Of a stretch of DNA of 37,732 nt, positions 6,127 through 37,379 are shown piece after piece. The notes beneath the pieces were generated by a model. It did not search any database, was not told the DNA's origin, and saw only the letters and a program-made list of their open reading frames with translations. Where the stretch lies: contig CAZPCF010000001.1 of NCBI GenBank assembly GCA_964585045.1, forward strand, positions 1 to 37,732. Reading direction: 5' to 3'. Both the position numbers and the translations under genes were made by a program. Within the stretch, counting starts at the first letter, position 1. Each line of letters begins with the position of its first letter. The DNA is from an uncultured bacterium (GTDB taxonomy: Bacteria; Omnitrophota; Omnitrophia; Omnitrophales; Aquincolibacteriaceae).

Positions 6127-6166
6127 TCATGTCCGCTTAGAGCATTTGTTTCATCTGGAGACAAGT

Positions 6167-7801: not shown

Positions 7802-7830
7802 TTGACCGATTAGAAGAGGCATGCTATATT
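7802..7830 (+). promoter_or_regulatory. Putative sigma-70-type promoter for the BamD-like gene
   Basis: TTGACC (7802-7807), a 17-nt spacer, then TATATT (7825-7830). It lies 41 nt upstream of ATG 7872 at the end of a 244-nt ORF-free spacer. Confidence 0.4.
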
Positions 7831-7871
7831 GCATCTTCAAATTTTCCTAACCTGAAGGTTGTAAACGACTT

Positions 7872-10871: not shown

Positions 10872-10890
10872 TGACCAACGGGGACTTATT

Positions 10891-12379: not shown

Positions 12380-12406
12380 CAAAGATCGCATGCTCCTTGT
12401 TACGTG

Positions 12407-12469
12407 CATAACGTACAACGCGCAACGCACAACGAACTTGTTATCAGTTTCTAAGTTGAGCGTTGTGCG
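12407..12469. repeat. Heptad array (CATAACG TACAACG CGCAACG CACAACG) with a complementary arm, forming a hairpin between the convergent holA and rpsT genes. It may act as a bidirectional terminator or be a REP-like element.
   Basis: CGCACAACG at 12426-12434 is perfectly complementary to CGTTGTGCG at 12461-12469. A further AACTT/AAGTT pairing lies inside. There is no canonical U-tract. Confidence 0.5.
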
Positions 12470-12475
12470 GAAGAA

Positions 12476-12739: not shown

Positions 12740-12773
12740 TTCGATGACTCCTTTGGGTGAAAAAAGTGGCGAC

Positions 12774-12802
12774 AATGTAACACGGGGTGCTGCTCCTGTC
12801 AA
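12774..12802 (-). promoter_or_regulatory. Putative sigma-70-type promoter of rpsT
   Basis: On the minus strand: TTGACA (12802-12797), a 17-nt spacer, then TACATT (12779-12774). This is followed by an AAGGAG SD (12753-12748) and the ATG at 12739. Confidence 0.5.
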
Positions 12803-12842
12803 CGAGGTTCCCCACGCCCACGCCGCGGGGAAGCGGCACCTG

Positions 12843-14429: not shown

Positions 14430-14435
14430 AAACTC

Positions 14436-14506
14436 GGGGAATGTGGAACGGTGAACGTGGAACGTAAAGATTTTTTCGCTAAGCGTTCCCCGTTACCCGT
14501 TTCCCG
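14436..14506. repeat. GGAAC-type heptad inverted repeat (hairpin) just after the murJ stop. It may be a terminator or a REP-like element.
   Basis: The left arm is GGGGAATGTGGAACGGTGAACGTGGAACG (14436-14464) and the right arm is CGTTCCCCGTTACCCGTTTCCCGG (14483-14506). They are imperfectly complementary, with a T-rich loop (TAAAGATTTTTTCGCTAAG). Confidence 0.5.
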
Positions 14507-14521
14507 GAGTGCTAGGCGAGC

Positions 14522-15970: not shown

Positions 15971-16116
15971 TCCTGCCTGCCGCTATATCCTGTTATAAGT
16001 TGCTAGTTGCTTTTTAGTTCAATTTATAGCAACAGAGATTTCCATAAAGTCTTTACTGCCTCCTTTAAAAATCCTTCCGTCAGTTCATTATTGTAAACAA
16101 ATAATGAGGCTACACC

Positions 16117-19100
16117 TTGCAGAAGGCTGATTATGTGTTACCTTTTCTTAAGATTTTAGAAATCAAGTTAGAGCCGAGGCAAATGAGAGCAGACCACAGA
16201 CCACAGACTACAGTCCGAGGACTATCTGCAGGCCATTTTTTGAGGGCTATTTCTCTCTCCACGGCCATTCTTTTTCTTTGCTCCGAAATCCTTACTTTCC
16301 CAGCCCAATCATTTGCTTATCAGTCTACAGACGGAAGATCGCAGACCGCAGGCCAGAATTTTTTGCTACAGTCTCCGGTCTCCGGTCTCCAGGTTGCTTT
16401 TTTCATTCCTCCCGAACTAGGCACGATAAGTGAAGCTTATCGCGGGGAACGGGGAACGGGGAACGAGGAACGAGAGGGTGCAAGCGTTAGCCGTTCCCCG
16501 TTAGCCGTTCCCCGGCACGACCGTACGGTCGTGCTCATCCAAGACGCTCACGCGGTCCCGGATGCCCAGAGATCTCTCATGAAACTCATCGAGCACTTCC
16601 AGTCAAAATACGGGATCCGTCAGGTTGCGCTGGAAGGAGCGGAAGGAAAGCTCGATCCAGAACTTTTTCGTAATTTTCCGGATAAGGAAAAGCTCGCTAA
16701 AGTTTTTAATAGTTATCTTGATTCAGGGGAACTCTCCGGAGCGGCTGTCGCGAGCGTGCTTTTGCCAACGCAGACAGATTACGTGGGCATTGAGGATTGG
16801 GATCTCTATCAGAAGGGGATCACCTCGTTCCTCAGGGGCCTTGAAAAGCAGGCCGATCTCAAATCTCAAATTTCAAATCTCAAAGAGAAACTGCAGGAGC
16901 TCAAAAAAAAGTATTATGCCCCCAAGGCGCTTGAGTTTGATGAGCATTATGAAAACTGGCGTCAAAAACAGGATGATTTTGCCGGGTTTTTAAACTATCT
17001 CGTTGAGACACTTCGATTTGACAGCAAACGTTATTCTTCGCTTGATGCCGTGATCCAAGGGCTTCGCCATGAAAACATCCCTGACAATTCAGCGCTGAAC
17101 CGGGAGATCAGAGCACTCGCTGCAAAGATCCAGCCTAAACTCGTGAACAAAGAGGTCCAAGCGAAATTCAACGAGCTCAAACAATCCCTGCAAACCGGGA
17201 ATGTTGGCAAAGTTGAATTTGCCCGGGGCCTGAAAGAGCTCTTCCCGGGAGACGATCTTGGGATATCCACGGAGTTGCTGGGGCTGATCGAAAACCATGA
17301 GGAGATCCTCCGGCTGCAGGGAGCTGAGTTTGTCAGTGAATTTGAGAAAGCCATCGCAGAGGCCAAAAGCTCGGTGTTTATTTCCGCGGATGAAAAAGAG
17401 ACGAATGCGCTCAGCGAACAGGTCATTATCCTTGAAAAGCTCACAAAGTTTGAATTGTCGAGGAGCGAGTGGAAAACACTTCAAGGGTACGGCGTACGGG
17501 GTACGGCGTACGGCGAACCCGTGGAAAATCCAATAGCCTCTTTCGTGCCCAGCGCTGATATCCCCTCTCTTCAGGCCAAAATTCTCATCCTGTGTCGGTC
17601 ACCCCTTATTGCCGACTTCTTTTCCTTCTATGCGATCGCTCTTCAACGTGAAGCCGTTTTTGTGAAGCATATTGAAAATTTACTCCGTACTCCGTACGCC
17701 GTACACGGTATGGTTGTTGTGGCCGGAGGCTTTCACACCGAAGGTCTCGCTCAGAAATTCAGGGAGCAAGGGATCTCCTACGTAGTGGTCTCGCCTCGGA
17801 TCAATGAGATCCCCAAAGATAGTCGTTATTTTGATTACATGAAGGGGCAGGTCTCATGGCGTGAGTATTTCAAACCCAAGAGCGGCAGGGTCGATCTCTA
17901 CGATGCGTTTGTCCAGGCAATGACGGAGCGCCTTATCTCACCAAGTACTAAGCACCAAATACCAAGTGCTCAGCACACGGTACAGAGGACATTCCGATCT
18001 AAGATCGATTTGAAAGACTGGAGAGATTCGGTTATTCGACGATTGGCCGCCGAAGGCCGCGTCGCAGAGCATTCGAAGTACACCCGTTATATCGACCAAC
18101 AGCTTGCCGGGCAGTCCGAAGAGTTCCAGGCCCTCAAGGAAAAATGGACGGCCAGACTCGAACAATTCATCGGAAAGCTCCAGCTTCTCGGTAAACAGAA
18201 TCAACTTACCGAAGCCAACATCGCGAGGCTCTTTACCGCGACGGCCAATTTTCCTGCTGCCACGGCCTCCCTTGTACCTGGTGCGAGTGTTCCTGTAAAT
18301 TTCGTTGATGATCAACGAGCGCAACGCGCAACGCGCAACGCGCAACGTGAAGAACAAAGGAAAAAATCGCTGAGCGGTGAGCGTAGTGCGTTGCCCGCGA
18401 AAGAGGTCCCCATTCCCAAAGAAGCCGTGCTTGATGAAACATCGGTCGAGCCCGGCCAAAGCTCAGCATCTGTTCGATCTGAGGTGCGGGTGGGTCAAGC
18501 TGAAGGAGCAATGAAGTTTGATGTCTCAGAAGTCCGTGAATTAGTGCTGAACGGCAAAGCGGTCACTCCCGATCAGTTTCACGCGAAAGTAACAGAAATG
18601 TCTCGAGGGGGCTTCATTTTTAATGCTGTTATCAGGGATCATGTATTGCGTTTGGGTGTCGCTCGCAGCAGCGTTGGGGGGCGGCGGATCTACCACGCCG
18701 AGATCAACGACCCTTCGAATCACGATGACGCCATTCTGGGCTTTGTTCCGGAGCCCGGGCCGTATCAAGAAATATCATTAGTCTATAAACGGTTCCGGTA
18801 TCCGGATCAGGAAGAACGGGAAGAACTCCAGGATCAGATGATTCTTTTTGCGAGAGTGTTTATACAGCAGGGGTTCCCTGGAACCACTTTTCTAGGCCGT
18901 GACACTCTGAATATTTTAGAAGGCATCGAGATGAAACTCAATGTCAAACGAGGAGAAGAAACGTTCGCAAAATTGGCGGCCTTACCGTTGTCGTCTGAGA
19001 AAGCGCGTTCCGGTCTGCTTGCAGAACGGGACGGATCCGTCCCGCTTTCACGGGCGGAGGCTCGGCAAAATGATGCTCAGACTGTTCCGGAGATACCCAC

Positions 19101-22100
19101 TACCGTTAATGCCACGCCACAAAATGCTGAGCGGCAGGCTGAACTTGAAAAATATTTGGCCGGCAAAACCCTCATTCATTCCGTTTTTGAAGGCGGGGGC
19201 GCGAAAGGTGTCGCGTATGTCGGGGCTCTCGAGGAACTTGAAAATAAAAAAATGTGGTTTAAGGAAGTGGCCGGTACCTCGGCGGGGGCGATCACCGCGT
19301 CCCTGATCGCGGCCGGCTACGAATATCCTAAGATCAAAGAGATCGTTTTCAACACAGATTTTAATCAATTCAAAGACAAGAGGTGGGGGATTGTCCCGCC
19401 GTGGCTGAACTTCCTGGTGTTTGGCGGGCTCTATCGCGGTCTGGTGTTCGAGAAATGGATCGCCGGTAAAATGAAAGAGAAACTAGGGTTCGAGCCGACG
19501 CTCAAGGATCTTCCGATCCCGCTTACGGTTATCACAAGCGATATTACCAATAAGAACATGCTCATCCTGAACAGGGAGACAGCGCCGGACCTTAAAGTCG
19601 CGGAAGCCGTGCGCATGTCGATGGGAATCCCGTTCTTTTTCGAAGTTTATAAATGGTTCGGGTTCTATAAAAAGTTCCCGCTTGCCGTGCGCCGCACCGT
19701 GGACGGGGGACTTCTCAGCAATTTCCCGCTTTTTATTTATGACAAAGCGGGCAGTAAAGGAGAGCCGGTGGTGGGGTTCATGCTTCAGGAGATCCCGCAC
19801 AAGAAAAAATCCTCCTGGATTACCAAGCTCCTGGCCCTTCTGAAATATCTCCCGCCGTTCCATATTGCGATCGCTGTGATCGATACCGCCCTTGACGGGC
19901 ACGACAACCGCCACATTGAAGATGATGTTTGGGCCAAAATCGTGAATATCCCGGTTGATGTCGGAACTTTGGATTTTGATCTGACGCTTGCTCAAAAAGA
20001 AGAGCTGGCTGCTCGCGGCAAGGAGGCTACCAAGAAGATCATAGGCCTTGCGATGCGAGGCGAAAAAGGCAAAGTCGATACGCCCGCGGAAAGACAGTTC
20101 GCGATCTTCAGATCGAAGGGGGGCCGCATCTTCTTCAAACCGGCCGGCTTTACCTGTGGTGTCCAGCTTGATCTCGTGGATTTTTATCTCGACGGCACTG
20201 GAGAGATCCAGTCGCATATCAAATTTCATCCCGAAAAAAGGATCCTCATCCAACCGAAGAATGTCTGGGAGACAAATCTCAAGAATTTGAGATCTCCTGA
20301 GGGTAAATGGATCGATGCTTCATTGGTCGAGGCTCTTGAGCCGATAACGAAAAACACGGTTTTTAATTTTGATACCCGTTTAAACAGGGATTTTATCCTC
20401 TTTGACCCCAGGACACGGCAGGAGATCGAGGTGATCGCCGTTGGGCCTGGCATCTCGCCGGCAGACAAGGACCAATTTGTTCTTAGCGTGGCATTCCCTC
20501 CGAGTGCGGAGATCATAAGATATAAAAATGATGTCAGGGTTGTGAGACGGGTTCCCGGCGATAGCCGTCCGGGTGTTGTACGGTCTGAAGTGCGGATGAG
20601 TCCGGCTGAACTCGGGGAGGAGTTTAAGAAAAACTTCCCGTTCGACCACGAGCTTATGCTGGCGATGTTCGGTGAAATGGTCGTAGAAGACGCTTTGCTT
20701 AAGGCCTTTTTTGATAAGTTGATCGCATCCGAACGACACCCCGTGTCAGAAGAACGGGCGCGGTACTTGGCATCACTTTTGCGGATCGACCAAGGGTGGG
20801 ACGAAGAACGTACCCTGACCTATCGCGTCAGACGAGGAAAAAAGACCGCCAGCGAAAGCATTCCTTATTCCGGGCTCCAGCAGGATTTTCTAGATTGGGC
20901 TGTGAAAATGAGGATTTCCCGGAGCGAATTCCCGCTTGCTTATGGCTTCTATGTTGAAGGGATCGAGGCGGAAAAGGAAAAGCAGGGGCCCAAAACGGTT
21001 TTTAAAGTAATGGCTGGGAACAAACTGGGGGATGCTATTTTCAAGAAAGTCGTTGAACGCCGGAAAGGACGGCCGAAACAACCTTTGACCTTCTATAAAG
21101 GAGACGTCGCGTCCGATGGCGATCTTCGCTGGCTGAAGACCTTAAAAACCACCAAAGATGTTCCTGCTGTTTTAAGCTCCTCCGGGATCGGCCTCAAGGA
21201 CCTCAGGCTTGGGTTTCATGACCCTGAGTTCCTCATGCAGGAAGATACTTATGACATCTTTCTTTTTACCACGGACCCTGTTTTTATCAATGAGGCCGCC
21301 AGTGTCGTCGAGAGCCGTCTTCCAACGACCACACCTGTCGGATACGCCCAGGTCCAGGTGCTGGATGGGGTTCCCACGGTCAGTGCTTTTCAGCCGCGCT
21401 TCTACCTGCCGCACTCGGTGGATCCCGCCCTGAAAGCGTATGTTGAAGGAAGCATGAAAGCGTTCGGCTTGCTGATCGAGGCCAATATCAAAGATATTCT
21501 GCGATCCAGGAAGCCTGTGACCAAGATCCGCTTTCTTACCCCAGGTTATTTCTTAAACGGACTTAAGGCGCAGGAAAGCACGATCCAGCATTATTATTTC
21601 ACGATACCAAAGTCCCTCGGGTATTCCCTCAAGGCCTTGACCGAACCCATCACGGGCGGTTATCAGCACATTAATTTTGTTTTTGAAAAAGAGGTCGCCT
21701 CTGATGTGTCCGCTTCACATGTCCGGCCAATCCGCTCCGAAACACGCAACACCATAACGGATTTAGCTGTGGTCGCGGAAGGCTTGAGTTTTGCCCTGCC
21801 ACATTATTTCGGGTCAAGCCTTATGGTGATCAGGGGCAACGCGGGACTCCTTGAATTGGCCCCAGACAGCAGGGAAAATATTGCAGCGATCGAAAAAGGT
21901 CTAAGAGATCTTACCGCTAAGCTTAAGATCCTCCGAGGCGAAACGATCACCGTTCTTCAGAACAAGGACGGGAAGAACTATGTCTGGCTTTCGAACGAAG
22001 GATTTTCAAGGAAGATCCTTCGGGGCCGGCGGTCTGTGACGCCGGAAGTCTGGCAGCAGCTCAAAAAGCAGCTTGGCCTTGATACGGTCTTTGCGGAATT

Positions 22101-25100
22101 GGCCGCGACGCTTGAACGGATCGGATCAAAAATAGAAAATCCGGATCTTTCGCCAGAGGACATTTCAACGATCCTGGAATCGTGCACATCTATTTCATCA
22201 TTAGTCCATTTAGCCACCGATAAGGCGAAGCAATTTGTTTCAACCCGGTCGGCACCGATCTTAAATGAGTCGGCACCGCCCAGTGAAGCGCGAGATTCAT
22301 TCTGGGACAAGCCGATTCAACTCCGTCCGAAATACGTGGCTGCCGGCATCGTGGGGATTATCGCTGTCGGGGTGTTGCTGGGGATCAAGTTGTCCGGGAT
22401 AACGTGGAATGAATTGAAATACATGACAACGACGCCTGTGGAGGTAAAACGTTTCATTACTGATGCCGCAAGAGTGGTCCGTGTTACCAAAGTTCGCAAG
22501 GTGGACAACGAGGCGGAATATGTGCCGATGTTCTCTTACCGGATCAAGCCAAGAAGTAAGTCGCTTTATACGGATGGAACCCGTTCCTGTGCCGCTTTGA
22601 TCATTGATGACCCGTCCGGTGGCCGACATTTTCTTGGGCATTTTGGAACGACCCAAAGTCCGGACTCGATCCGGGCGCTTATCACGGACAATTTCCAGGA
22701 ACTTGGCGGGTTGCAGGTCTATGTCTTAGAGGGGAATCAGCCGGGCATGGATCGGACCATTTTTGCTCCCGGCGCCTATGCAACCATCAAGAATATCTAC
22801 GCTACCTTGAAGGATCTCGGCCTGCTTTCCCAGACAAAATATATACCTAAGAACACAAATCCCCATTGGGGGAGCAGGATCTTTGTTCAGGACGGTGAAT
22901 TGTTCTTGCCCAACCATGATGCCGATTACCCGCCGCCCGATGATAGTGACGGTAGTACTAAATGGATCCTTGAATCGGAACCGCGAAGTGAATTACGGCA
23001 AGGGGAGTTTTCGGAACTTCTTTCTCAGATCCAGGAAAAAACAGTCGCGGGGGAAGAGCGGCTGAAAATTGAGAGGGTTGAACAGTGGAGCCGCGCTGTC
23101 CGGGAAGTTGCCGAAGCGAATTTTTATGACAAAACCGCAGAGCCTTTTATCTCGCATTGGGAATGGATCCTTGGCAGACCCGAAATCTGGGAGGTTCTTG
23201 CCGCGAGCGACAGCCTGGATCCATTGCTTGATGGGATAGAAAGCGGTCACTCGCCAAAAGCGATGCGGATGCCTAACCTGATCAAAAGCGCCATCTTTTT
23301 TAGCGTCCTTGGTCTTTCTACGTCGGCTCTTTTCGGCATGGAGGAGAGCTCCACGCTGGTTCGAGGCTTTGCAGTCTTCGCGCTCGTCCAAATTTTGCTC
23401 GTCTATGCCGTCGCAAGTGCGACTAAAGTCCGGCGGGTTCGCACCCAGCGGCAGGAACAATGGTTTCTTGAGACGATCCGGCCCAAGAAAATTCAGATCG
23501 AAAATCGCTTTCATGAGCTCGCGAAATTCTCGTGGGTCGACGACTCTCCCGAGGAACCCATTCTGAGACCCGGTCTCGGAACGGTGTCGGAGGCGCGCAG
23601 CGAGTTAAGGGAAGAGAAGGCGCTTGCGGCGATCCACAAATTTGCCCACGCCGCGAAAGAACAAGTGAAAGAGTTCGCGAAAAAAAGCATTGCGGCCAAG
23701 CAAAGAGTGGAATGGGAATTGCGGCGCCATGGAAAGATCGAGAACAAGGGATGGTTCGCCCAGGCGTTAGGTGACCTTAACGAAAGAGGTAGGGTGTTCG
23801 ACCAGCATGTGGACGAGTTTGTGGCGGACCGTGATGATGTGTTGAGCGTTGTGAACGGCGACCTACTAGCCAGTGTGGTGGAGCCGTTCTCATATGAATA
23901 CCAGGCCATGAAAAAGGAGCTCGGGTTGATTTTGAAGTTCGCCATGGGATCCGAAAAAGACGGTTTGGAGTGGACCTCTTTGGAACACCATCTCAACGAC
24001 TTGAGTTTGGTGCTTTTGGAAATGATGGATACTTTCGAGACCATAGCCATGCTTCCCGAACTGGATCTTCGCGATGGGATCGTGGACATGACGCTCAATC
24101 AGTCCGACCCAGCGTCGCAAGTGAACGAGAAGAAATACAGCGAGCAGCTTAAGCCGGTCTTCCAAAAAAGTTCCCATGTCTACGAGGAAGTCCTGAAACT
24201 CAAAGAAAACGGTGTCCTTTTCGAGATCTTTCCTTTTTTAAGACAGATTGCCGGATTTCAAAAAAGGGACGGATCGATCATTATCGATCATCTCCTTAAT
24301 CTGATCCGCTGCCTTGAGTGGATCGAAAAAGGGGACCGGGCGGCGTTTAATGAGGGAACTCTTGGCTGGGTTGTTGAAGCGCAGGAATTCCAGTTATATC
24401 AAAAGTTGTTCAGCGAAGCGTCCGCCGGAGAAGGGCGCGAGCTCCTCTATCTCGTGGCACTGCTGCACAATATCGGGGAGATCTCCCGTGTTGAGGACTG
24501 GAAAGACCGTGAAAGTTTCCAGGTCAGACAGGCTCTTTTTAAATTTGATCATTCCGAGGCCGGCGGGGCTTATCTCATCCGACCGATCATCCGCAGGAAA
24601 CTTGGTTTTTCTACCCAGGTCATGAAAGACCGGATGAAAATGGTGGAATGGCTCGTTTTTCACCAGTTTGCACTGGGGAATCTTTTCTTCGGTGAGCTTT
24701 CCCCAAGCCATCTTTTGGCCAAAATGGTGGCCATGCCTCCTGGCGTTGATCAGGCGAAGCTTTTCAAAATGCTGACGATCCTTTCCTTTGCCGATCTCCG
24801 GAACACTTACCGAGGCGCATACATTACCAAGTTCAAAACCAATTTCTATGCCGGCATGATGAATTTCGAAACCCTTTGGCTGATCTTACAACGATTGGAT
24901 GAATACCGGCTTCAACGCTTCATAACAGGTCCGGACGGTTCCCCGGACCCCCAAAAGCAGATCGCGCTTGACGAAATATTCTACGGAAAGCTTCCGGCCT
25001 CTTTACAGAACCATTTGAAGCATGTGTTGAGATACGGGGTCCACCGGTTCTATTTTGGCGCTTTTCTTTTCCGGTCCATCAAAGTTGAAACGCTCCTGAA

Positions 25101-28100
25101 GCTTCTTGTAACGATCAGCGCTTTCTTCAAAGCGCCCGGCGTCGAACTCCGGGACGTTGCTTTTACCACTCCGTCAGCCGAGGCGGAGACTGTTGCCGAC
25201 CAACTTGACGCTTTTTTTGACCCCCTATCTTTTCAAGAGATAGGATCTTTCTTCGGAATGGATGTCCACAAGATCCAAGGCGTTCTGGCCGAGCGGGGGC
25301 TTCCGGTGGAGATCCGGGAGGCTACCGAAGAACTGGTGATCGACACCAAAGCATTGCTGCGGTTTTCCACTCGTCCCGATTCAAAAAATCGGGCGGAAAT
25401 GCGGACAAACGAAATTGATCCAAAGACGCTGCCCGAGCGTGAGCGTGTCCGTCTCGTTCTGGAGTACATCAAAAGTAAAGGGCAAGCCGAGGCCGCCCGG
25501 GGAGATCTGCCCGGCGACCTTCTTCAGGAAATTTTTGAAAAATACGACATAAAGCTCAAGTCGACGAAGAAGGGTAAGAGTATCTCCTACGATTTCGTGG
25601 ATGCCTCTGCGAAGCCCAAGTCAAAACCAAGGATACAATCCAGCCCGAAAATTAAGCGAGACGGATCTGCGCTCGTAACAGCTAATGCAGAAATAGACCG
25701 GCAAAAGGCTCTTCTCGAGATCCAAAACTTGAAGCGAGCGGCCGGTCTAGCTATGCAACAGGCTCAAAAGAACCACGATCCGGACCAGTATGCCGTGGCC
25801 GTCGCAAAGCACGATGAAATCGCGGCCAGGTTGTCGGTGTTTGGGGCCCAGATGCAAAGTAAAATCAATTTTCACGTGCAGCAGGCTCGAAGGGCGAAAG
25901 AGCTTCGGGCCGAAGAAGAGGCAAGGCGTTTGATCTCACTGAGCAAGGAGGAACGGCAGGCTCTTGAAGACCAAGCAAGACAGGAAGTGTTGAAAGTTGA
26001 GGGCGAAAGGATCGCGAAAGAAAAGGTCCTTGCCGAAGAGCGCTTCCGGCTGGAACAGGAAAAGAAAAAACTGGAAGACGAACAGATCGCCAGGGAAGAA
26101 GCCTTCCGGAAGCAGCGTGAAGAAGAGGCCAGACAATTACTGGAAGCGGAACGGAAGGAACGCGAGGCGAAGGTCGCAAAGGCGAAGTTTGAGGCGCACA
26201 AATCCGGAGTTATTAAGCTGATCGAAGAAGCTGACGTGCGTCTAACAGCTTTCGATGCTAAGGATTTTACCGGTATTAAGAGCATCCGTGAGATGAAAGA
26301 AATCTCCTCCGCGATAAAAGCTGTGGAAGAATTCAGAGCTAAGTACGGGAAGGACGGGGATCTGGAGGGATACTACGGCATTTTTGGATCTTCCCTTGCG
26401 ACCAAAGAAGCGGATTACACGCAGTGGCGCCAGAATAACGAAAAGCTCCTGGCTATTATCACCCGTAACCCGGCTGTACTTCTCGACCGGATCAGATCGG
26501 CAGAAAAGAAACGTTCGCGCAACGAGCCGCTTGAACCGGTCGAAACCCGAAAGGCCGTCGAAGCTTCATTCAAGGTGATCATGGAGGCGGCCATGGCCGA
26601 TATTGGGTCGCGCGATACTTTTACGGAACAAGACGCCGCGACCATGGGGCTTTTAAAAAAAATCCGAGCTGCGTTGGACGTAAACCAGTCCACATCCCGC
26701 TCGGAGGTACGCCAAAAGAAGGGCTTGGGGAAGGAGCCCCCGGATGTTCTGGGTGTCCGAGAGGCAGATATTATCCCTCTGGACCTGAATGCGGATCAGA
26801 AGACAACATTTGAGACATTTTGGGATTATGAAAACGGTTGGGAAGGAGTAGCCCGTATTGAAGGGGGAGATCCTGCCTGGCTGGATTCGGAGGCAGGAGC
26901 GGAGCTTTACAAAAGGATTTCGCAAAAAACCCGCGTTCTGGCCGCGTATATCCTCTTCCACTTTCCTGACGGCGATAAACTTGTACTGCGCGAGATGGCG
27001 GATGCGAACGGCCGGCCTTTTTTTCAAACGGACGAACGAAAGTTAGCGTTTATCCTGAACGAAATGGCAAAAAATGCCATTGTCCACGGCCATAAACTGA
27101 ATCTGCAACTCCCCGTCTTTCTCCAGTGGAAGTTCGATCTGAAGGAACGCGTCTTCCGGATACGGGTCGTGAACGCCATTGAAAAAGACGACAGCCTGAT
27201 CCAAAAGATCGGCCCGGAAAAGCTCCGGGATATCCTGAAATTAAGCGGGGAGGGTAAGGCCGAAGAGGTCATCTACCACATGACGGGCGGAAATATTCCA
27301 GCTAGGAAGGACGTCGGAAATGCCACAGTCTCGGAGCTCGAGATTCGATTAATTATAAGATCGGAAGCGAGGGGGGAGGGGACCGAAGGAGCGGGGAAAT
27401 TGGATATCTCAACTGAATCTCGCGAAAGGGAAGGATATACATGGGTTAATGGCGATTACGTTCAATACGGTAAAAAGGGCGGTATTTGGATATCTGGAGA
27501 CACGGGAAAAGGTAAGAGTTTTCTCACGATTAAAATGATTGAGAGCGGTTTGCCATTCAAAGTTGTATCGTGTGGGGCATCTTATTTTAAGTCCCATGAA
27601 GAAGGCGGTAAGAGGATAATTCTCGGGTTGAGGGGTGAAATGAGCGCAAACACTCTTTATTCCAGGCTCCTCGGATACAAAAAAGTCACTCTCACGGAAG
27701 AAATGGTCGTCCCTTTGCGTTTCATAGTCACCCTTGATGACACGTACGAAGATTCATACATAAGGAAAGAGTTAAAAGGTGAGGGATCGGCTGAAAAAGC
27801 GGACATCAGGATAATAAACCTGACCGATCTTGATGTCAGTAGGGATTGGGAAGAGGCAGTGCGCAGAATACGCGAGGTGGTAGAGGGTACGTCAAGAAAA
27901 GTAAAATCCGTAAAATTCGTGGATGGTTCAGAAAATGCCAGCTCCCAGCCGCGTGTTGAAACAGCGCAGGCAACAGCGGGCGTGCTTCCGAGAGGCATAT
28001 CCCTACAAATACCTCGATCCGAGGTGAGAAGCCAGAATCAGATCCAGTCAGAGATTGACCGGGTGACGGAGCTGAAGAATGGCGCGCGGATGCGGGCCCG

Positions 28101-31100
28101 GCAATTCCTGCAGTATAACCGTGAGTTGATCCAATGGTTCCTGGCATTGAAGGACGCGCAGGGAAAGATCACTGAGGAATCGAAAGAGGAGCAGACGCTT
28201 ATTCTGGAGAAGATCCGTGATTATGCGGACGTCCTAAGAGAAATCGCCGGAAATATCCGTCCGGATGTCGGCGAAGGGATCGTGGGCGAGCAGACGCGCT
28301 ACCAAAAGCTCAATGACTATGCGGTTAAGCCGTCTTTGGGGATCCGGCAGGAAGAAGTGACGATCGCCCTGACCGCAGAATCCCGGAAGCTCAAAGAAGA
28401 TATGGCGGGACTTCAGAAGCAATTTCTCGAAGCTCATCGCGCTAAAGATCCGGGACGACTCCGAAGCCTGAATGAGCAAGCCGTCGCGCTTTACAAGGCG
28501 CGTCTTAAAGCGCAGCTTCTCCAGGCATCTTCTTATCTGCAAGAACAAAAGATCGACACAACGGCTTTATTGACCATCCTGACAGCTATTCGCATCGGTT
28601 ATCTCAAAATTTCTCATGAATATGGTTGGCGGATCCGCCGCGCGCTGGGAGAAGCCGCGATCCAGAAGATCCAGGTGGTCGGACGTGAAGGGGATGTTGC
28701 CCAGGTCTACGACTATGAGAACTTTAAAATGGCAACAGTCCCGGACGGCAAAGGCGAGCAGAATCCGGTGACTATTTTCCAGGACGTCTGGGTCCGGAAA
28801 GACCTTGAAGACGGCAGTTTCACCTACCAGCCTGAAAAAAGGCCATTTGTTTTTAAGGATCTCAAGACAGCGGTCCGGAGATCTTTCCATATCCTCTTGA
28901 ATCAGGAAGTTGATTTTGCTCAGGTCTATGACCGGATCAATGATCTCGACTATATCGTGGACCTTTTGAGGACCGACGGCGATGAGATCCCGGAATATTA
29001 TTTGGAAGATATCCGGGAATCGGTGGATTTCATCATGAACGCCCGCCGGGGCAGTTTGACGCGGGGCCATGTGGATGAAAAAGGGAATGCTGCCGCGAAC
29101 GTCAGAGGCGGCATGTTCGAACTTGAAGCGCGACATACGGCCAGAGCTACTGAAATGTTCGGAGCTGCCAAAAAAGAACTTGAGACGCGGTTGATTGTTC
29201 TTGCGGGCAAAAAAGCAGGGATCAGTTCCCAGGCGCAATATTTGATCCACCGCTACCGGCGTGATGAAACCTCGAGGGCTATGCGGGAACTTGGATCTCT
29301 GCTCGAGGAGCAAAATTTTCAGGCAGCGTATCAGCTTCTCAGAGTTCTCTACAAAACCCATTATCTTCACAAAGCTTCTGAAGAAAGCCAATATGCTTCG
29401 CTCCAGTGGCACGTGATCGATCTCGGAGTCTCGCTCAAGAGACTTGCGTTGAAGAAAGATCGCCCGTCTGCAAGCGTTCAAGGGAATATCCTTCGTTATG
29501 TCCGAGAAAACATCCGGCGAATTCAGATCATGGCTGGCGCGAATCTCAGTGATCCGCCTTCGCCGTTGCGCAACGAAGGACGGATCCATTCTGCTTCGCG
29601 GGCGGAAATGCGCTTGAAGCAACCTCTCAGGGCGGTGGTGTTCGACATCGGTGGAGTGATCTTCGACCTCGATTTTAAAAAAATGGCTCAGGCGTTAATA
29701 AATGCCGGTGTACGCATCAAGACCGTCGAAGAGATCATTGCCCTGTCCGTTTCCTCAGATGTTTATAAGGCTTTGGAACGCGATGAAATATCTCCAGAAG
29801 CTTTTTACGCTGCTCTTTGCGGTGCGTTAGGGATCGGGATTCTTTCCTATGAAGAGTTCGTCAGGATCTGGACCGATATCTTTACGCCGAAACCCGAAAC
29901 GGTCGAACTGATCAAACAGGCCAGGGAAACCGGCGCTAAAATCTTCTTTTTGACCGACGCCAATCGTCTCCATACCCAATATCTAAAAAAACATTACCCG
30001 GATGTCTTTGCGCTCGCCGATCACGTTTTTCCTTCTTATGAGCTTGGCCTTCGGAAAGGGGATGGTTCTAGGGTTTTTCAGGTGGTGAGTGAAAAACTCG
30101 AACAGGAGTATGGGATCAAGCACGGTGAATATGTCTTTTTTGATGACCGGAACGATAATGTCGCTGCGGCGAACAGCGTAGGTTTTCCTGCAATGGTCTT
30201 TGAATCGGCGCAAGCCGCACGAGAAGAACTTGCTAAGTCGGAAGAAGTTACGCCGGACGAAATACAAAGCGATCTTACAAAGATAGATCTTGCCGGAAAA
30301 GGATCCTCCAGGATCACAAGCATTGATGAAGCCGGGTTGCTTGTGACGGGGAAAAGACAAGAGGTCTCTGAGCCATGGACAAATCGGCGGGCCCGGCTAA
30401 CCTACATCTTAAGGGAGGGTTTGAAACCGTACCGGGATGTTCTCCCGGCATTAACAGATTCGTTGAAGGACGGCGCACGTCACGGCGGGAAATACATATC
30501 CTTCAGTATGGTGTCGCCCCGGTTTGGTTATGCGGGTACAAGTACGGACTATCTTAATTATGGCCCTTCGTCTGGAAAGAACGGTTACTCTCTTTACAAC
30601 GTGGCATTCATTCTTGATCCTGCTTATGTCCGCCGGCACCAGGAGGATTTTCACGCGGTCGGAGAGGCCTTTGCGGCGAACGGGACGATGCACAAGGCTT
30701 ATATTGATTCAAAAGGTGAGGTTCTAGGCGGCTTTACGTATCGCTCTGGGATCGCAGAACAGATCACAAGGCCTGCTCCTTATCCTGATGAAGTGGTGGT
30801 AGACCGGAATATCCCTCCGGAAGCTTTCGGCGCGATCATTGCTCACGATGCCTATGCAAAAGAGATCCGGGACATTATTGTCACGGAGTGTCCCCAAATG
30901 TCGATCCGGATATTCAACCCGAAGGGCGAGATTCTCTTTGATATTAAGAGCGATACAACAACAACGTTGCGTGCGACTTCGGAAGGAAAGCGCAGTGAGG
31001 TTCGGTCTGAGCCGGCTCCTGAGGGAACTCCTACGGCCGGTTTTAATGAGGGAACCCGGCAACAACTTCTGAAGTCGATCGCCCATTTCATCCAGGTGAT

Positions 31101-34100
31101 AGATACATCATCCGAAGCGCAATTAAAAGCCATGGAGCAGGTCGTGATCAATCACATGGGGAAATTCGATAAGGCCGAGGATATTTTGGCGCTCATGGGC
31201 GCCCTTGTTGGTATCTGGGATCGTCTCTCAAAAATATCCGGTGAGCGTTCCGCGTCCGAAACGCAATTAAAAGCCATGGAGCAGTTCGTGATCAATCACA
31301 TGGGGAAATTCGATAAGGCCGAGGATATCTTGGCGCTCATGGGCGCCCTTGTTGGTATCTGGGATCGTCTCTCAAAAATATCCGGTGCGCTTCCCGCAAA
31401 AAATAGTTTGTCCGAAACGCAATTAAAGAGCATAGAGCAATTCGTGTTCGACAGTATGAAAAAATCTGATAAGCCCGAGGATATTTTGGCGTTCATGAGT
31501 GTTCTTGTTGATGTTTGGGTCCGCTTCTCAAAAATACCCGACGTTTCTCCCAGTATCTATAAAGAAAGGATCGGGTATTTGATCGGAAATATTTTTAAGG
31601 GGGAGAGGCTACTCGATAAGGATACGAATCAGAATGATATCAGCTTGTTTGAAAAGTATGTCGGAGCGGCAACCACCTCGGACATTATAACGCTAAATGA
31701 CATACTGAGGGAATTGGCCGATCGTATGCCGGAAATTGAACCGGGTGGGTTGACGGAAGAGGAATTAAAGCTCACGCGGGCGCTCGCCGACTATGAGCTT
31801 TTGGAAAAAAGAAAAACGATAGGTTCCACGATCGGGCGGAAGATCGATGATTTGAAACGCCTGGGAGAAGAGGCCTCCCGGAAAGCCTCGGAGCCTCCGG
31901 TTTCGGACAATGTCGGGTCTTCCGAGGCAGATTTGCAGTCCGAACCCCCGGATTTTGAGCGCAATGCTCTCGGCATCCCATCGGCCCCTTTGCCGCCATC
32001 AAATGTTTTGGACGGCCGCGATCGACTTGAGGCGGCGGTGGCGATCATGGGACACGGTGGGCCGCTTGATATAGCGGATCAGATACATAATGCAGGTCTT
32101 CTGCAACTTATGGATTATGTCAAGGCCCTGAAAGGGGACGTCGACTTCGAAAAAGAGAAGGCATTAGAACAGGCTCTCTTGCAAAAGGCCCGGCTCTATT
32201 ACTCTTTTGCTTATGCAATGCAAAAATTAAATCGTCCGGAAGAAACCAATGAAGAATTTCTAACTTTGGTCACAGCGGGTTTACGGCAGGAAGAAGCTCC
32301 GGAAGTGCAGCGAATTTTCCGGCGGTTGGTGGAAAACGGCCTAGATCCAAAAGAACGGGAGAAGGCCTTTATTGCATGGACCCGGGAGGTTGATGGTCTT
32401 TTGCAGGGGTTGCGTTCGGAAGTGGAGCGGATCGATCCCGAAAAATTTTCTGCCGGAGAAATTGCCCGCGTTCAAGAGGCTGGAAATATATATAACTATG
32501 GTGATGAATCTGTCGGCCGGTTCGAGGGCATCAAACGAAATTACATCGCCCTAGCAAAAAGATGGCAGTTTAATTTTAAGGCCATGGCTTCTTATCTGGC
32601 GCCGGAAGGAACAGCGGATTTTCAAGAGTTGAATCTGCCTGCTTGGATTTTGCAACGTACGTGGGAAACCAAACAGGAGGCGCACAGGGTTGTTGCGCGG
32701 CCGCCCGTTGGGCGGCTGCCCGGTGTTTTCGTGAACGAAGAGTTGCTGCATCTTGCGATCGAAAGGATCATTTCAAACGGCTTTCGTGCGATCAATGAGC
32801 AAGCATCTTCTTTACCCGGTGGATTTGAAAAGGTGGACATCGATACGGAAGCTATCCGTGGTATCGATGGCCGGGAAAATGTCCAGATCAGGATCTTGAG
32901 CCCCGGTGTTATTCCGGACAGCAAGCTTAAAATAAATGAAGCTCGAGGCATGCAGGAGTTGTTCGTCTTGGATCCAAAGCGTTCGCATTTCAATCATAAC
33001 ATTGCAATGCCATTCGTAGGACAAGCCATCAAAGGCCTCGGGGGGAAGATCTTTGCGGAAAATATCACCACGGGTGGCCAATCATATGCCGTAGTGACAA
33101 TAGAATTGCCGGCCGGTCGCGCGGACCGCCTTGCGAAGGCAGGCGAGTCTCGCTCTGAAGTCCGGGCGGAACTGCGTTCAGGAAACTCTGAGGGCCCGAA
33201 TATTGGGTCGGCGAGCGAGGATCTACGGGTACGAAATTACGAGGAAGTGAAGGTCGCCGAAAGGATAATGTTGCGTTCAGGCGAGAAGGTAAGGACATTT
33301 ACTGTCCGGGGTTCGTTTCATCTTACCGACGACACTACTTTAAACCTTGCTGTCGACGAAGAAAGCGGAAAATTATACGTCATAAGAAAACTTCTGACCG
33401 AAGAAGATGAAGATCATTGCTCATACGTCCCTAAAGTAATGGAAAAGTTGAAGGGCTATGAGGGCGTATACCAAGCCGAATGGATGGTAAAAGCCGACGA
33501 CTCGAACGGGTGGGACGGCAGGGATGCTTCACTGAATGGGGCTATAGTTTATCCTTATATCCCGGGGAAGGACCTCGCCAGTATTTTCGAAGGGTATAAA
33601 AAGCTGCCGCCTGCGGCGTATTTCAGCGAATTGCTGGATATCGTCATCCGGGTGGCCGACATCGGCGCGTACATCGAAGCAAAAGGCATTTACGATGTTT
33701 GGAGTATAAAGCCGGAAAATATCATGATCACCCCCGACGGCAAGCTTGTCCTTATCGACTATACCCGGAAAAAAATAAACCCCCTATCCAGCATAGAATT
33801 CCTCCTTTACGATTCTACGGATGGTATTCACATGAAAGGAATTGATGGCGTATTGCCTACGCTGAAGTTCGTATCGGATCCCGCGCTGAACCGCCAGATC
33901 GTCAGCCGCCTTACTGCCGCACACCGGAAAGTGAAGGCCAATAGTTACGAAAACATAGGTCAGTTCAGCGAAGAGTTAAAAGGAGTAAAGGCTCTCATGG
34001 AAGCAGGGGATAGCCCGGGAAGTGCCACGCCGCAGCCGCAAGGCGATGTCCGTTCCGAGGTGCGTGGGGAAAAAGATTTGCTATGGACGAAACCCGCGCT

Positions 34101-37100
34101 TGATGCCAAACCGGATCCAGTAGCGGTTGTGAACCGTCAATTTAAATGGTGGACCAAACGCACTCCCGCGTGGACAGAAGAAGAAATACTTAAAATCCCG
34201 GAAGTGATAAAGGCGCTTTATGACGCAGGGATCAATTTGCGCGGCGGATCCATTCAAATGGATAAAAGCGAAGAAGGAAAAAAGACCGTGCAAAGCGTAC
34301 TCGGGACGCCGAGGACAGCATCGGCCATTTATACGAAAACGCTGCAACTTTACAAAGATAAAGGAAAATGGCCCGCGGCTTTGCGTGAAGCAGGGATCGA
34401 CCCGGCGATCCTTCCGAATTATCCCGGTGCGATCGAGGAACGGAACATGAAGTTCGCTCAGGAGGAGCAGGCAGGAAAACGCTCTGCCCCGTCTTTGGAT
34501 ACCGAAGAACGGATTCGTCCCGGTTCTAAAAATCGGGCGGAAGTACGGGTAGAAAAATCCAAAGGGAAACAACCATCGCTAGCTAATCTGATTAGGACCG
34601 TTGCCACAGCGCCCATGCGGTATGCAGGGAATTCCATAAAAACGGATTATGGAGCCGTCGCGTTTCAAAAGCTTTACGGAATGCTGAGAGAGGATCCGGA
34701 AGCAGTGTTGAGCGGCATGGCGGGCCTTTCTGCCGCGCTTCTGCGGCAGTTCAGGAATAGCCGGCGGGGGAAGAGCTTGATCTCGTTTTTCCCTGTGTTG
34801 AACGAATCGCAATCATCCCAGCCCCGTTCGGAAGTTCGAGAAAAAAAATATGATGCCGATTGGCTCCGAAACGCGGCTTTTCTTTTCGACAGTACGGATC
34901 CTGAACTCCGGGCGGTTCTGAATGAAGTTTTGGGCGATGATTCCGAGGCGCTGACACCGAGACAGCGCGAGGTTCTCCGCAAGCGGTATTGGGAGGGGAT
35001 GACGATCTCTCAGATCGCGGAAGAAGAAGGAAAAAGCAGGAATGCTATATCCGATGTCGCCTGGAAAGCGATCCTCCGCCTCCGGCATTATCTTGATGGA
35101 AAAGGCTATTTCAAATTGAATTCCTCCGCGGATTTTCAATATCTGTTAATGGGTAAACAAAGTCGCGCGGCGCGTGCTGAGGTGCGCTCCGAACCGTCTG
35201 AGGCAAAGATTCCTGTTGAGACAAAGACGCAGTTGGATAAAGAAGAGGCTCGCCCGGCAGAGGCACAGCCTGTCGCCGAGGTAAAGAAACCCGAAGAGAT
35301 CGTGCCAGTTCAGGAGACGCCGCTTCCTGTATCCCTGCCCATCCTACCGTTGGTAGAAACAGCCAAACCTGTTGATCAGCTGCAAACGGAGAGAGCCGAA
35401 GTGCCTTCTCAAGTTGAGCCTGCCGCCGTTGAAGAAATTGTTCCGGCACCCAAGATTAAGAAAGCAAGATCCCAGAAAGCTTCTGCCAAGGAAAAAGCCG
35501 GTGACCGGATCCTTTCCAAAGAGCTGGCGATCGCCCTGCTCCAGGAACTAGGGATCGCTTTTCCAAGAAATTCTGAGGAAGTCGCGGAGGTTTTTCTACG
35601 GCTTTACGAGGACAATTATATGAGGGCTATTGAGGCGTTAACATGGAGCGATCCCGCCAAGGCGGTCGCCAGGGCAGAACGGTTGATAGAATTGATCGAA
35701 AGCCTAACGGAAAAAACTCCGAATATGCCATCCAGAATTTATAAAAGGTTCGAGGCCCTTATAGCGACTCTCAAATGGTTTCGTGATGCAGCCAAGTTCG
35801 CGGGCTCGATAGAACAGCCGACGCTTATGGACCGTGCGGTGGGTGATGATCCGGACCTTGTGATCGAGCAGGTGACAAACATGATCGAAAAGGTCGAGGA
35901 GGGTAGAGAGAGATTTTCCGCTCCGCCGGTCGGGTTCGACCGGGCCCTCAAGGCCTGGCAGGACAGGTTATTGGGGATCCAGCAGCTGGCGATGAACAGC
36001 AAAGATGAAGTTGATACCGTGCGCTCCGAATCGTTGGATTCAGTAAACGCCGGAAAAGAGGAGGATGCTTTCACGAAGGATCAAAAAAGGGACCTTGTCA
36101 GGGAGGCCCTTGAAGAAATGGGGATCCAGGAAGTCGAGATGAAAAAATTGAATCTGGTGCGGATCTTCGATTTTTGTAACGGGCCGGGGGTCGAAGCCGC
36201 CGAAAAGCTGAACGATTATTTTGACGGACGCGGATTTCCTGGTCTTTCGGATCAGGTGGACGATCTCATTTTGAGAATGAAGGCGGTTATTGCACAGGAG
36301 AACGAAGATGAGGAAGATACCGGGGGGAACGATTATGGTTTTGTCCGCAGTGAAACAAGGTTGCAGCAAGTTTACGCGGGTGTGCTGGGGACGGTGTTGC
36401 GTCAAGATCCGGACGGGAAGAATCTAGTCCGCGAATTTACAGAAGAAGTAAGAGAAGCTGGGGTGGAGATGGTGTCCCAGGGTCTTTGGACTACTTTCAA
36501 CAATATCGTTCTTCCCGAGGCTATGGCGGCGATGACGGTCAGTGATACGAATGTTCAGGTGGCGGGTTACGATGTGCTTGAAAATGTGCTACGCCAGAAG
36601 GACCTGAGCCGCGAGACGTTGGACAGGATCGCCGAGCAGATGTTCAATGACTCCTTGAAAGATCTTGTCGATGCGATCCTGAAGCGGGAGATCGGCGGCA
36701 TGGCACCGGTGGTGTTCTACTCTTCGGAGATGAAGACGCGGCTGATCCATTTTATTGAAACGGTTCAGCAAGGATTCGAGTCGATTGGGGATGTGACAGG
36801 CGAGAATTACAGGATCACCCTTGTTTCTGCGAACAAGGCCGAGCTTAGAATATTGAAAACCGAACTTTCGAAACGCGGGGCGTTGCGCGGCGTGCAATTT
36901 ATCGAAGATAAAGGATTAAACACTGTTGCCAGGGAACTGGCGTCATCTGTCATCCGCCACCCTGTTTTCGGAGTGCGGTTTGGCATTTTCTTTCCCGAGA
37001 GTGGTCTCGGCCAAAATGTAACTTGGCAATGGGTGGTCCGCTCCGAGATTCCCAAGGAATATGCCGTTCTTCTTCTCCCAGCTTTAAGTAGATACTTTGC

Positions 37101-37260: not shown

Positions 37261-37266
37261 AAAGCG

Positions 37267-37379
37267 CTTAACGCGCAAGGCGCAACGCTAAGCGTAAGAG
37301 CTTGTTTATGCATCTTGTGCTTGGCTTTTGGACTTTTTTAAATCTTTTTAACGTTGTGCGTTGCGCGTTGTGCGTTGCT
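37267..37379. repeat. CGCAACG-family heptad inverted repeat just after the giant-gene stop
   Basis: The left arm is CTTAACG CGCAAGG CGCAACG CTAAGCG (37267-37294). The right arm is CGTTGTG CGTTGCG CGTTGTG CGTTGCT (37352-37379). The loop is 57 nt and T-rich. Confidence 0.55.

Follow-up and report, generated by a model that had tools for sequence, protein, structure and literature searches.

Paired heptanucleotide repeat arrays, read in frame, in the leader module of a giant gene from an uncultured member of the Omnitrophota and its relatives

Introduction

An excess of simple sequence repeats (SSRs) with a unit of seven nucleotides is a known and poorly understood phenomenon in bacteria (Mrazek et al. 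2007, as cited in PMC4679880 and PMC4692102). Described examples are the cyanobacterial STRR repeats with GGGGA(C/T)T, the GGGAATC repeats of Xanthomonas and the TAACTGA repeats of Beggiatoaceae, and for the arrays of Xanthomonas and Nostoc a preference for about four units was reported (PMC4679880, PMC4692102). We describe here heptamer arrays from a stretch of 37,732 nucleotides (hereafter the window; contig CAZPCF010000001.1, positions 1 to 37,732, of assembly GCA_964585045.1) from an uncultured bacterium of the Omnitrophota, family Aquincolibacteriaceae, where most of them lie in frame in the 5' part of a giant open reading frame (ORF). An earlier note, made from the sequence of the window alone, had drawn attention to five groups of these arrays and offered two readings of them, as contingency repeats that switch the giant protein ON and OFF or as in-frame insertions of a hairpin-forming element. 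The arrays resemble the known bacterial heptamer SSRs in having tandem 7-nt units that are over-represented against other unit lengths, in the small number of units and in their frequent position near gene ends; an inverted arrangement also occurs in the known cases, where it is only occasional (PMC4692102, PMC4679880), and the G-rich units found here (GGGGAAC, AGGGGAT) resemble those of Nostoc and Xanthomonas. Unlike those SSRs, which are overwhelmingly intergenic and depleted in coding sequence, most arrays described here are in frame within giant ORFs, and they usually come as complementary pairs, in recurrent protein loops, with many unit families per genome and in the phylum Omnitrophota.

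Two further systems are close in behaviour. Rickettsia palindromic elements (RPEs) are palindromic insertions that occur in frame and also between genes, with an encoded peptide that is compatible with the protein fold (PMC10969869). As with RPEs, hairpin-forming dispersed repeats are found here both between genes and in frame within them, and are absent from some orthologues; RPEs, however, are contiguous, about 100-150 bp long and of family-specific sequence with a conserved peptide, whereas the present elements are built of heptamers with a total of 50-75 nt, use different units at one site in different species, and may have their arms placed in separate loops. Repetitive extragenic palindromic (REP) sequences and REPINs are inverted-doublet hairpins, abundant downstream of genes and falling into genome-specific families (PMC3116915). 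Many-copy inverted doublets that form hairpins, and a location downstream of genes, are common to both, but REP/REPIN sequences are extragenic, not internally tandem and mobilised by RAYT, whereas the arrays described here are translated, tandem and mostly within ORFs. Neither a RAYT (IS200/IS605-like) nor another transposase was found among the scanned ORFs of the 37.7-kb window. SSR contingency loci, such as the tetramer tracts of Haemophilus and Neisseria and the 7-bp repeats in the hmw1A promoter, are single, long, near-perfect and variable between isolates. The present arrays share with them a unit that is not a multiple of three, a position at the 5' end of the gene of a probable surface protein and the property that one unit shifts the frame; they differ in being multiple, in having no more than about four perfect units, in being paired with their complement and in being in frame in all orthologues examined. 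By analogy, the arrays appear broadly REP/REPIN- and RPE-like in behaviour, and not like contingency switches.

What is new here is the combination of known traits in a new phylum and setting, namely translated and paired heptamer arrays, situated in loops of a giant-gene leader, with arms that co-vary. As far as we searched the literature on Omnitrophota giant genes, heptamers and hairpins are unmentioned. These genes are a current puzzle, both in the making of mRNAs and proteins of 20-400 kb and in the evolution of mosaic architectures, and the one module common to the whole giant-gene family is a hotspot of translated, hairpin-forming heptamer repeats. If these are only tolerated, they would present a clean bacterial case, outside Rickettsia, of selfish or slippage-born repeats creating in-frame linkers despite a unit of seven; if the stems are selected, they would represent a novel kind of regulatory structure within coding sequence.

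Excess of period-7 arrays in the window and in related loci

A tolerant scan of the window returned 10 arrays of period 7, against 0-1 for the other periods within 4-13; 100 shuffles of the window gave a mean of 0.1 and a maximum of 1, so that the period-7 arrays are far beyond chance. The five array groups listed in the earlier note are all present where it placed them, and array scans confirmed the lack of arrays that it had noticed in the remaining 18.8 kb of the ORF; its inventory had overlooked a four-unit ATCTCAA array (S3, Table 1) and the arrays that lie between genes.

Across about 1.36 Mb of related Omnitrophota loci (cited below by their L numbers), period 7 accounted for 162 arrays, compared with 2-28 for periods 5, 6 and 8-11. 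Merging reduced these to 136 arrays with 75 distinct units. An inverted partner matching in at least 12 of 14 bases within 300 nt was present for 60 of the 136, as opposed to 7 of 136 in a control placed elsewhere in the same locus. The arrays are small (3-5.6 units, median 3.9) and mostly imperfect, perfect units reaching a median of 2.1 and a maximum of 4.1. Their density per 10 kb was 2.3 in intergenic DNA, 1.3 in ORFs of at least 2000 aa and 0.3 in ORFs below 700 aa, where nearly all those counted are at ORF edges or in truncated giant ORFs; ordinary-sized genes are essentially free of arrays, and 108 of the 136 fall within ORFs of at least 700 aa. Certain units recur between loci (CGCAACG in 7, GTACGGC in 6 and GGGGAAC in 5), and one unit may be favoured at several sites per genome, as with GGGCCAC in L008 and GGATGRC in L010 and L053; this reuse of one unit in single genomes (L008; L010 with L053) suggests copying between sites. 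No single recognition motif emerged among the 75 units, ACG/CGT and GGA/TCC being enriched only about 2-fold, and Rfam gave no family match. The arrays may well constitute a lineage-wide class in a clade of Candidatus Omnitrophota, usually occurring as inverted complementary pairs able to form stem-loops, an assignment we make with moderate confidence.

A general excess of palindromes was considered as well and rejected for the window: with the heptamer pairs excluded, the count of perfect inverted repeats was as expected, and the phenomenon is therefore specific to heptamer arrays.

Arrays of the same kind lie where nothing is translated. The intergenic pairs of the window (Table 1), one of which begins 3 nt past the stop of the giant ORF, share the units CGCAACG and GGAACG with the intragenic arrays. 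In L003, L004, L009 and L083 a heptamer array or hairpin made of other units is located in the MurJ-UvrC spacer or just upstream of UvrC, and the arrays that precede the giant ORF in L010 and L064 appear to mark this site too. The intergenic hairpins have no U-tails and are thus not canonical intrinsic terminators.

Recurrent positions and changing units in the leader module

The giant protein consists of a signal-anchor-like N-terminus (about aa 19-39), a conserved leader module of ~750 aa and a mosaic cargo, and only the ~750-aa N-terminal module is common to all homologous loci. The leader modules of eleven loci were aligned and the array-encoded residues marked, upon which the arrays were seen to occupy the same roughly eight variable, indel-rich positions (S0 to S8). 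The first 2.4 kb of these eleven loci hold 48 arrays in 26.4 kb (18 per 10 kb), and the ORF downstream of the leader a single array in 88 kb (0.11 per 10 kb). Units differ between species at each site, yet the paired arms remain complementary: at S2 the pair reads GGGGAAC/CGTTCCC in the window and L004, GGGCCAC/GTGGACC in L008, AGACCAC/GTCTCCG in L009 and GGAGGGC/ATCCTCC in L012, and L003 has none.

L003 and L083 represent the species with the closest uvrC found (83% DNA identity). They have no intragenic arrays, and the one array feature that they carry is a CGCAACG hairpin shortly before UvrC, which in L003 lies in the MurJ-UvrC spacer. Compared with the window, L003 shows gaps or short non-repetitive sequence at S2, S5, S6, S7 and S8, and because of these gaps the arrays of the window are, as far as the alignment tells, insertions or expansions relative to L003, as the second reading of the earlier note, in-frame insertion of a REP- or RPE-like hairpin, predicts. 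Much of that reading stands: the arrays occur both between genes and within ORFs, they are missing from L003 and they sit mostly in loops that are modelled with low confidence. The arrays do not, however, form contiguous elements of the RPE kind, the S5 and S6 arms being in two loops and the units varying by species.

An AlphaFold model of the leader module, built on a 6-sequence alignment, reached a mean predicted local distance difference test score (pLDDT) of only 54.8, with a helical core at 70-90. The segments that hold six of the eight sites (S0, S1, S2, S5, S7 and S8) were modelled at a pLDDT below 50, S2 being within segment 90-113; S6 is at a helix end and S3 inside a confident long helix. 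According to this model, most arrays are in low-confidence loops that are probably disordered.

Where distant orthologues share a unit at a site, the array is the best-conserved DNA of the module. Between the window and L004 the 3' arm of S2 has an identity of 88-94%, where the overall value is 58%, and S3 provides the only 20-codon stretch at 80% identity or more between the window and L009. The conservation of such arrays suggests, at the level of sequence, either a nucleotide-level constraint or recent exchange. At S5 the unit identity between orthologues was no higher in codon register than in other rotations, so that a slow drift in place from one ancestral unit is not demonstrated, although orthologues with intermediate or mixed arrays are found at S3.

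The individual sites of the window are listed in Table 1. The S0 array (tandem core 16190-16213) encodes ADHRPQTTV, which parallels SDHRSQTLV in the relative P0002. The GTCTCCG repeats of S1 (tandem core 16371-16390, 2.9 copies) had been matched in the earlier note with the AGACCAC array; this lies 180 nt upstream, and the best partner proved to be the degenerate local arm at ~16338-16358. A reading of the translation of L064, which is outside the alignment, places an AGACTAC/GTCTCCA heptamer hairpin between the signal anchor and a PPELG motif, corresponding to S1. At S2 the GGGGAAC core (16443-16472, 4.3 copies) faces CGTTAGCCGTTCCC x2.1 (16485-16514), with arms of 30 nt that are 83% complementary; at S5 and S6 GTACGGC (17487-17515, 4.1 copies) faces 17681-17704, with arms of 24 nt, 92% complementary and 170 nt apart; and at S8 CGCAACG (18319-18347, 4.1 perfect copies) faces a degenerate arm (18368-18399) to which it is 75% complementary. 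The site homologous to S7 carries a clearer AAGTAC-type array in L005 and a GTACGGC-type hairpin in L009.

Table 1. Coordinates of the giant ORF and of the arrays and hairpins in and around it (positions in the window)
Feature	Coordinates	Strand	Description
Giant ORF	16183..37260	+	7025 codons from ATG 16183; mechanical ORF start TTG 16117
S0	16188..16215	+	AGACCAC array, 3.4 units; codons 3-11, ahead of membrane helix
S1	16338..16393	+	Local hairpin; degenerate 5' arm gatcgcagaccgcaggccaga; 3' arm GTCTCCG x3 (16366-16393)
Ha	16424..16442	+	Small 7-bp hairpin, non-heptamer; codons for TISEAY, directly 5' of S2
S2	16441..16514	+	Heptamer hairpin; 5' arm GGGGAAC x4 (16441-16475), 12-nt loop, 3' arm CGTTAGC/CGTTCCC x4 (16485-16514)
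Hc	16515..16534	+	Perfect 20-nt palindrome gcacgaccgtacggtcgtgc; abuts S2
S3	16855..16884	+	ATCTCAA x4 array without inverted partner; encodes DLKSQISNLKE
S5	17485..17518	+	GTACGGC x4, 5' arm of long-range pair
S6	17680..17706	+	CCGTACN x3, 3' arm of long-range pair; ~170 nt from S5
S7	17939..17981	+	Degenerate ACCAAGT-type array; tandem core 17939-17966
S8	18317..18399	+	CGCAACG x4 perfect (18317-18351) and degenerate complementary arm (18368-18399); leader module/variable cargo boundary
Intergenic pair	12404..12470	.	GCACAAC/CGCAACG array and gcgttgtgcg; between convergent holA and rpsT; z = -2.8
Intergenic hairpin	14435..14506	.	GGAACGT x4 / CGTTCCC x3; begins 6 nt past MurJ stop, upstream of UvrC; z = -4.6
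Heptamer pair	37263..37378	.	CGCAACG-type arm 37263-37293, CGTTGCG/CGTTGTG x4 arm 37352-37378; z = -5.3

On translation the array-encoded peptides RGERGTGNEERE and QRAQRATRNAQRE noticed earlier were found as described. One possible explanation is that the arrays are kept for such peptides, i.e. for 7-residue-periodic low-complexity linkers or heptad segments of the leader module. The modelled position of most arrays, in probably disordered segments, would suit this, as would S3, which lies in a long helix and where the peptides encoded by the units ATCTCAA, CGCAACG and GTTCAAA resemble one another (L/F-K/N-x-Q-x-S/A-x-L/F-K/N), and a parallel is offered by the tandem repeats of Borgs, which are stated to create disordered regions (in the account of PMC9879509). 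Against that, at any one loop the peptides of different species bear no relation to each other, the same units are found between genes and in both orientations, and the complementarity of the arms has no protein-level rationale, all of which makes a selected peptide improbable.

Complementarity of the arms and predicted folding

The arrays S5 and S6 flank a coding segment, DFFSFYAIALQREAVF, that is conserved in all relatives including the array-less ones, with F479, F482, Y483, A486, R489, V492 and F493 as invariant residues between the two. In 10 of the 11 orthologues, and with at least six unit types, the S5 and S6 arrays are complementary to one another; L003 is without both. When S5 was matched against S6 across species, the matrix was block-diagonal, with values of 10-19 for the same locus or close unit-sharing relatives and ~6 elsewhere. 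The predicted S5-S6 fold comprises 18-29 long-range pairs in 10 of 11 orthologues, and in the window the long-range stem at 17480-17712 has z = -4.0 (RNA fold).

An arrangement of two arms, 24 nt long and 92% complementary, around a 170-nt segment, conserved in 10 of 11 orthologues, could also represent the inverted repeats of an intragenic invertible segment, a flip of which would truncate the protein and thereby turn it ON or OFF. We consider this very improbable, given that no recombinase domain was detected by Pfam in the ORFs of the window (the ORF at 8-1105 was without a match) and that the loops of most other pairs measure just 10-45 nt. A recoding inverton, in which both orientations would be read through, is excluded, because in-silico inversion adds 1-5 stops in all nine orthologues tested.

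A rival explanation, which we regard as possible though doubtful, is that selection maintains the paired arrays and the small hairpins nearby as nucleic-acid structures within the 5' portion of the giant mRNA. Ribosomes would be slowed by the S5-S6 clamp of 20 bp and by the triple hairpin at codons 81-118, or else these would mark sites of processing or protection, and the heptamer arrays would merely be how the stems get built and rebuilt; in variants of this explanation the structure might cause a pause about 40 codons after the signal anchor, when this is just out of the exit tunnel, or might serve as an RNase III-type double-stranded RNA site. Hairpin positions that are kept while the sequences turn over, at S2 in 9 and at S5-S6 in 10 of 11 orthologues, are what such selection would produce, and so is the block-diagonal matrix; in L004 and L011 the S5/S6 units pair with one G.T wobble each, on the sense strand. 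Yet the gene of L003/L083 is intact without any such structure, S3 is unpaired, and in several orthologues a clear partner is lacking for S4 and S7.

The folding results are similarly divided. Strong mRNA hairpins early in the message, which the earlier note had thought possible, are predicted at 16418-16536, where the S2 region forms three adjacent hairpins with -69.2 kcal/mol, compared with -41.3 +/- 3.4 in shuffles (z = -8.3); this region is stable in 9 of 11 orthologues, with z from -2.2 to -7.5. The second such place, 18310-18402, gave z = -1.4 only, neither S8 nor the S0-S1 region folds with significant stability, and folding z-scores of the N-terminal 2.3 kb are not generally below those of the rest of the ORF, all of which speaks against selected structure. 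The heptamer-free hairpin Ha, in turn, favours it: pairing in Ha is kept through changes on both sides, with 80.5% of cells paired, against 64.8 +/- 3.1 in shuffles, and 12 double-sided changes, against 4.5; none of 500 shuffles attained the observed score, and 5 of the 7 pairs show double-sided changes, in addition to G.U pairs. To this the conservation of the S2 3' arm, where the DNA of the window and that of L004 agree best, and the concentration of arrays in the 5' 2.4 kb may be added. Template switching, however, gives 'compensatory' changes without selection, and as selection for pairing and templated copying of arms (quasi-palindrome correction) both yield compensatory patterns, the two are inseparable on this evidence. 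The mismatches in 25 intragenic stems comprise 9 G.U and 13 A.C; in the lack of a G.U excess over A.C, an origin at the DNA level fits better than selection on the sense RNA.

Sense-RNA selection recognisable by mismatch bias was accordingly rejected as a candidate, on the same counts of 9 G.U and 13 A.C.

It would follow from selection of the stems that we are dealing with an undescribed intragenic structured element, with stems at fixed leader positions and 3' of neighbour genes whose pairing is kept while the units are rewritten; we judge this to be rather unlikely. The roles that such an element might have, i.e. a translation pause at emergence of the signal anchor, processing or protection of an mRNA of >20 kb, or the marking of module boundaries for recombination of cargo, are put forward with the same reserve.

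Origin and persistence of the arrays

The explanation that we favour, and to which we give about an even chance, is that these are tolerated, translated, hairpin-forming heptamer repeats, which slippage and copying generate and of which selection keeps those that leave the frame open. Both the origin and the turnover of the arrays would be events at the level of DNA. An array would be homogenised by slippage in a 7-nt register, copying from arm to arm or from site to site (by template switching or ectopic conversion) would keep the partners complementary, and the same copying could spread one unit to several sites per genome. Purifying selection would discard versions that shift the frame or bring a stop into phase, and, because frameshifts and stops are thus removed, the surviving arrays would be translated as short low-complexity linker peptides. 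The arrays persist only where harm is small, just 3' of genes and in variable loops, most of them probably disordered, of the fast-evolving leader of this membrane-anchored giant protein.

A DNA-level and largely non-adaptive origin is supported by the presence of the same arrays where nothing is translated and by the intact genes of L003/L083, which are without the elements. The array densities given above, highest in intergenic DNA and lowest in ORFs below 700 aa, likewise go with tolerance. Avoidance of stops can be read from two sets of arrays. In the TAGGGGA arrays of L004 and L008 the in-phase unit is altered to ACAGGGG, the stop trinucleotides being 'repaired' only in the reading phase; and it is the ATCTCAA array, the complement of which, TTGAGAT, would put TGA in one phase (as read from the sequence), that is without a partner.

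Several observations weigh against mere tolerance. The roughly 160-fold concentration of arrays in the first 2.4 kb is hard to explain by tolerance alone, a point that is tempered by the better-conserved modules (75-80% identity) of the downstream cargo. The complementarity of S5 and S6 in 10 of 11 orthologues, across conserved coding sequence and ~170 nt apart, would require a mechanism that couples the two. The S2 3' arm is among the most conserved nucleotides between the window and L004 (88-94%), the non-heptamer hairpin Ha next to S2 has compensatory changes, and no transposase or dedicated machinery was identified by Pfam among the scanned ORFs of the window.

Phase variation, the first reading of the earlier note, holds that slipped-strand contingency repeats switch the giant protein ON and OFF within a population by one 7-nt unit. 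The arithmetic behind it is correct: the unit length is not a multiple of three, and one unit gained or lost shifts the frame. The product is, moreover, probably a surface or membrane protein, with the arrays towards the 5' end of its gene, and one of the arrays has four perfect units. As a rule, though, they are short and mostly imperfect (perfect units with a median of 2.1 and a maximum of 4.1, n=136), there are 7-8 per gene and not one switch, and the same arrays abound in intergenic DNA. All nine continuous loci (the window, L004, L005 and L007-L012) are in frame through every array, and no OFF-phase allele frameshifted at a tract was found among them. L006 and L064 do have premature stops, but these are in-frame point stops that lie outside the arrays. 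Same-sample contigs that end within arrays could indicate heterogeneity, but such ends may reflect trouble of the assembly at hairpins or repeats and are no evidence of polymorphism. We therefore think phase variation quite improbable, and return to tolerated repeats as the preferred explanation.

The separate annotation of the leader module and the next giant gene in P0002 and P0003 could also be taken as a sign of phase variation. In these two relatives the leader is annotated as a gene of its own, of 881-945 aa; on the P0003 contig the next giant gene begins 5 nt after it, and the P0002 listing ends at the module. The ORF is continuous in L004 and L007-L012, unlike the separate leader genes called in P0002 and P0003, which may stem from a true split, a frameshift or an error of assembly.

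As for the stops, L006 has an in-frame TAG at GKA*. An A8 homopolymer is present in the window at 16903-16910 (ELKKKYY), and L064 at about 3760 reads K*KYY, with an in-frame TAA. These point stops could be errors, pseudogenes or read-through.

Look-ups of further alleles returned few records. A gapped exact pattern across the CGCAACG array had 0 matches in the metagenome collection, and a wobble-degenerate pattern for this array matched only L083, which is another species. Exact-protein look-ups of UvrC and S20 led to two short ENA contigs of one sample, 100% identical to the window; for the TPR protein there was no exact-protein record.

The two contigs, L001 (= window 14483-16374) and L084 (= window 10630-12904), are short-read contigs of ENA ERZ27248937. 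L001 begins and ends within heptamer arrays, and one end of L084 is in a 9-nt tandem repeat. Repeats and hairpins may fragment short-read assemblies; since same-sample contigs end inside arrays, the arrays may add to this fragmentation, which bears on the recovery of giant genes from metagenomes.

The giant gene, its relatives and its neighbourhood

The ATG at 16183 is the likely start of the giant ORF, with a Shine-Dalgarno-like GAGG upstream and a context, gccgaggcaaATG, in common with L064. Homologues of the first 872 residues are all from metagenome-assembled genomes (MAGs) of Candidatus Omnitrophota, with 31-51% identity. A scan of GTDB species representatives yielded 80 loci with titles of Omnitrophota/Omnitrophica or 'uncultured bacterium', apart from two exceptions, one Candidatus Taenariivivens and one 'uncultured Planctomycetales'. 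In Pfam nothing of note matched the leader module (DUF1319 alone, with 17.3 bits against a cut-off of 28.1 bits), and a Foldseek search of the PDB with a model of moderate quality gave no fold neighbour, so the label 'Tiki/ChaN-like' that had been attached to it is unsupported. Matches in the cargo of the window, from a Pfam scan, are to patatin, HAD and sigma70_r4.

Cargo modules common with relatives sit at differing positions and are 80% (L004), 75% (L008) and 59-61% (L007) identical, whereas the leader module is only 43-47% identical in L004, L007 and L008, i.e. less conserved than the common cargo modules. This pattern, as seen in the sequences, suggests shuffling of modules or exchange between giant genes. 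The cargo is bracketed by two CGCAACG-type arrays of like orientation, one at S8 (18317-18351) and one at 37263-37293; this may be a coincidence, CGCAACG being the commonest unit, or may be relevant to cargo exchange. Within the cargo a tandem duplication of 144 nt (31111-31394, 2.0 copies, 96% identical) constitutes an in-frame duplication of 48 aa.

The genes 5' of the giant ORF encode a TPR/YfiO protein, LptE, holA, rpsT (minus strand), MurJ and UvrC, and P0002, the one relative for which neighbour genes are listed, has the same gene order as the window. The G+C content steps from about 40-45% at 1-8000 to 50-56% at 8000-37732, and the low-G+C part holds sulfatase, radical-SAM and glycosyltransferase genes.

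Other repeats and structures

The murJ gene contains, at 13085-13197, a perfect 13-nt inverted repeat (CAGCATCACGGTC / GACCGTGATGCTG, 86 nt apart) around a GGAGGG/CCCTCC hairpin, with a predicted fold of -55 kcal/mol against -34.3 +/- 3.5 in shuffles (z = -5.9). Eight relatives largely lack it in their MurJ genes: only L009 and L012 have a related long-range stem, with L012 alone reaching z = -2.3, and the structure is thus largely lineage-specific.

L053, which belongs to the MAG of L010, has at 2900-21600 two adjacent giant ORFs (>3200 and >4000 aa) with 19 heptamer arrays. These are spread over the full length of the ORFs, unlike the N-terminal restriction described above, which does not hold for this paralogue, and are almost all of GGATGAC/CATCCGN type, often as inverted pairs.

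Among viral contigs, too, the same units form arrays sporadically, in unrelated contigs of 27-69% G+C, which does no more than confirm the wide occurrence of heptamer arrays. Two unrelated IMG/VR records, L093 at 2384-2560 (68% G+C) and L088 at 5289-5376 (52% G+C), have arrays of 11-14 units; the long IMG/VR arrays include a 12-unit CGTTCCC tract and a directly abutting GTTAGCN/CTCACTG pair, which by eye, and unscored, is partly complementary (reverse complement GCTAACN against CTAACTG/CTCACTG).

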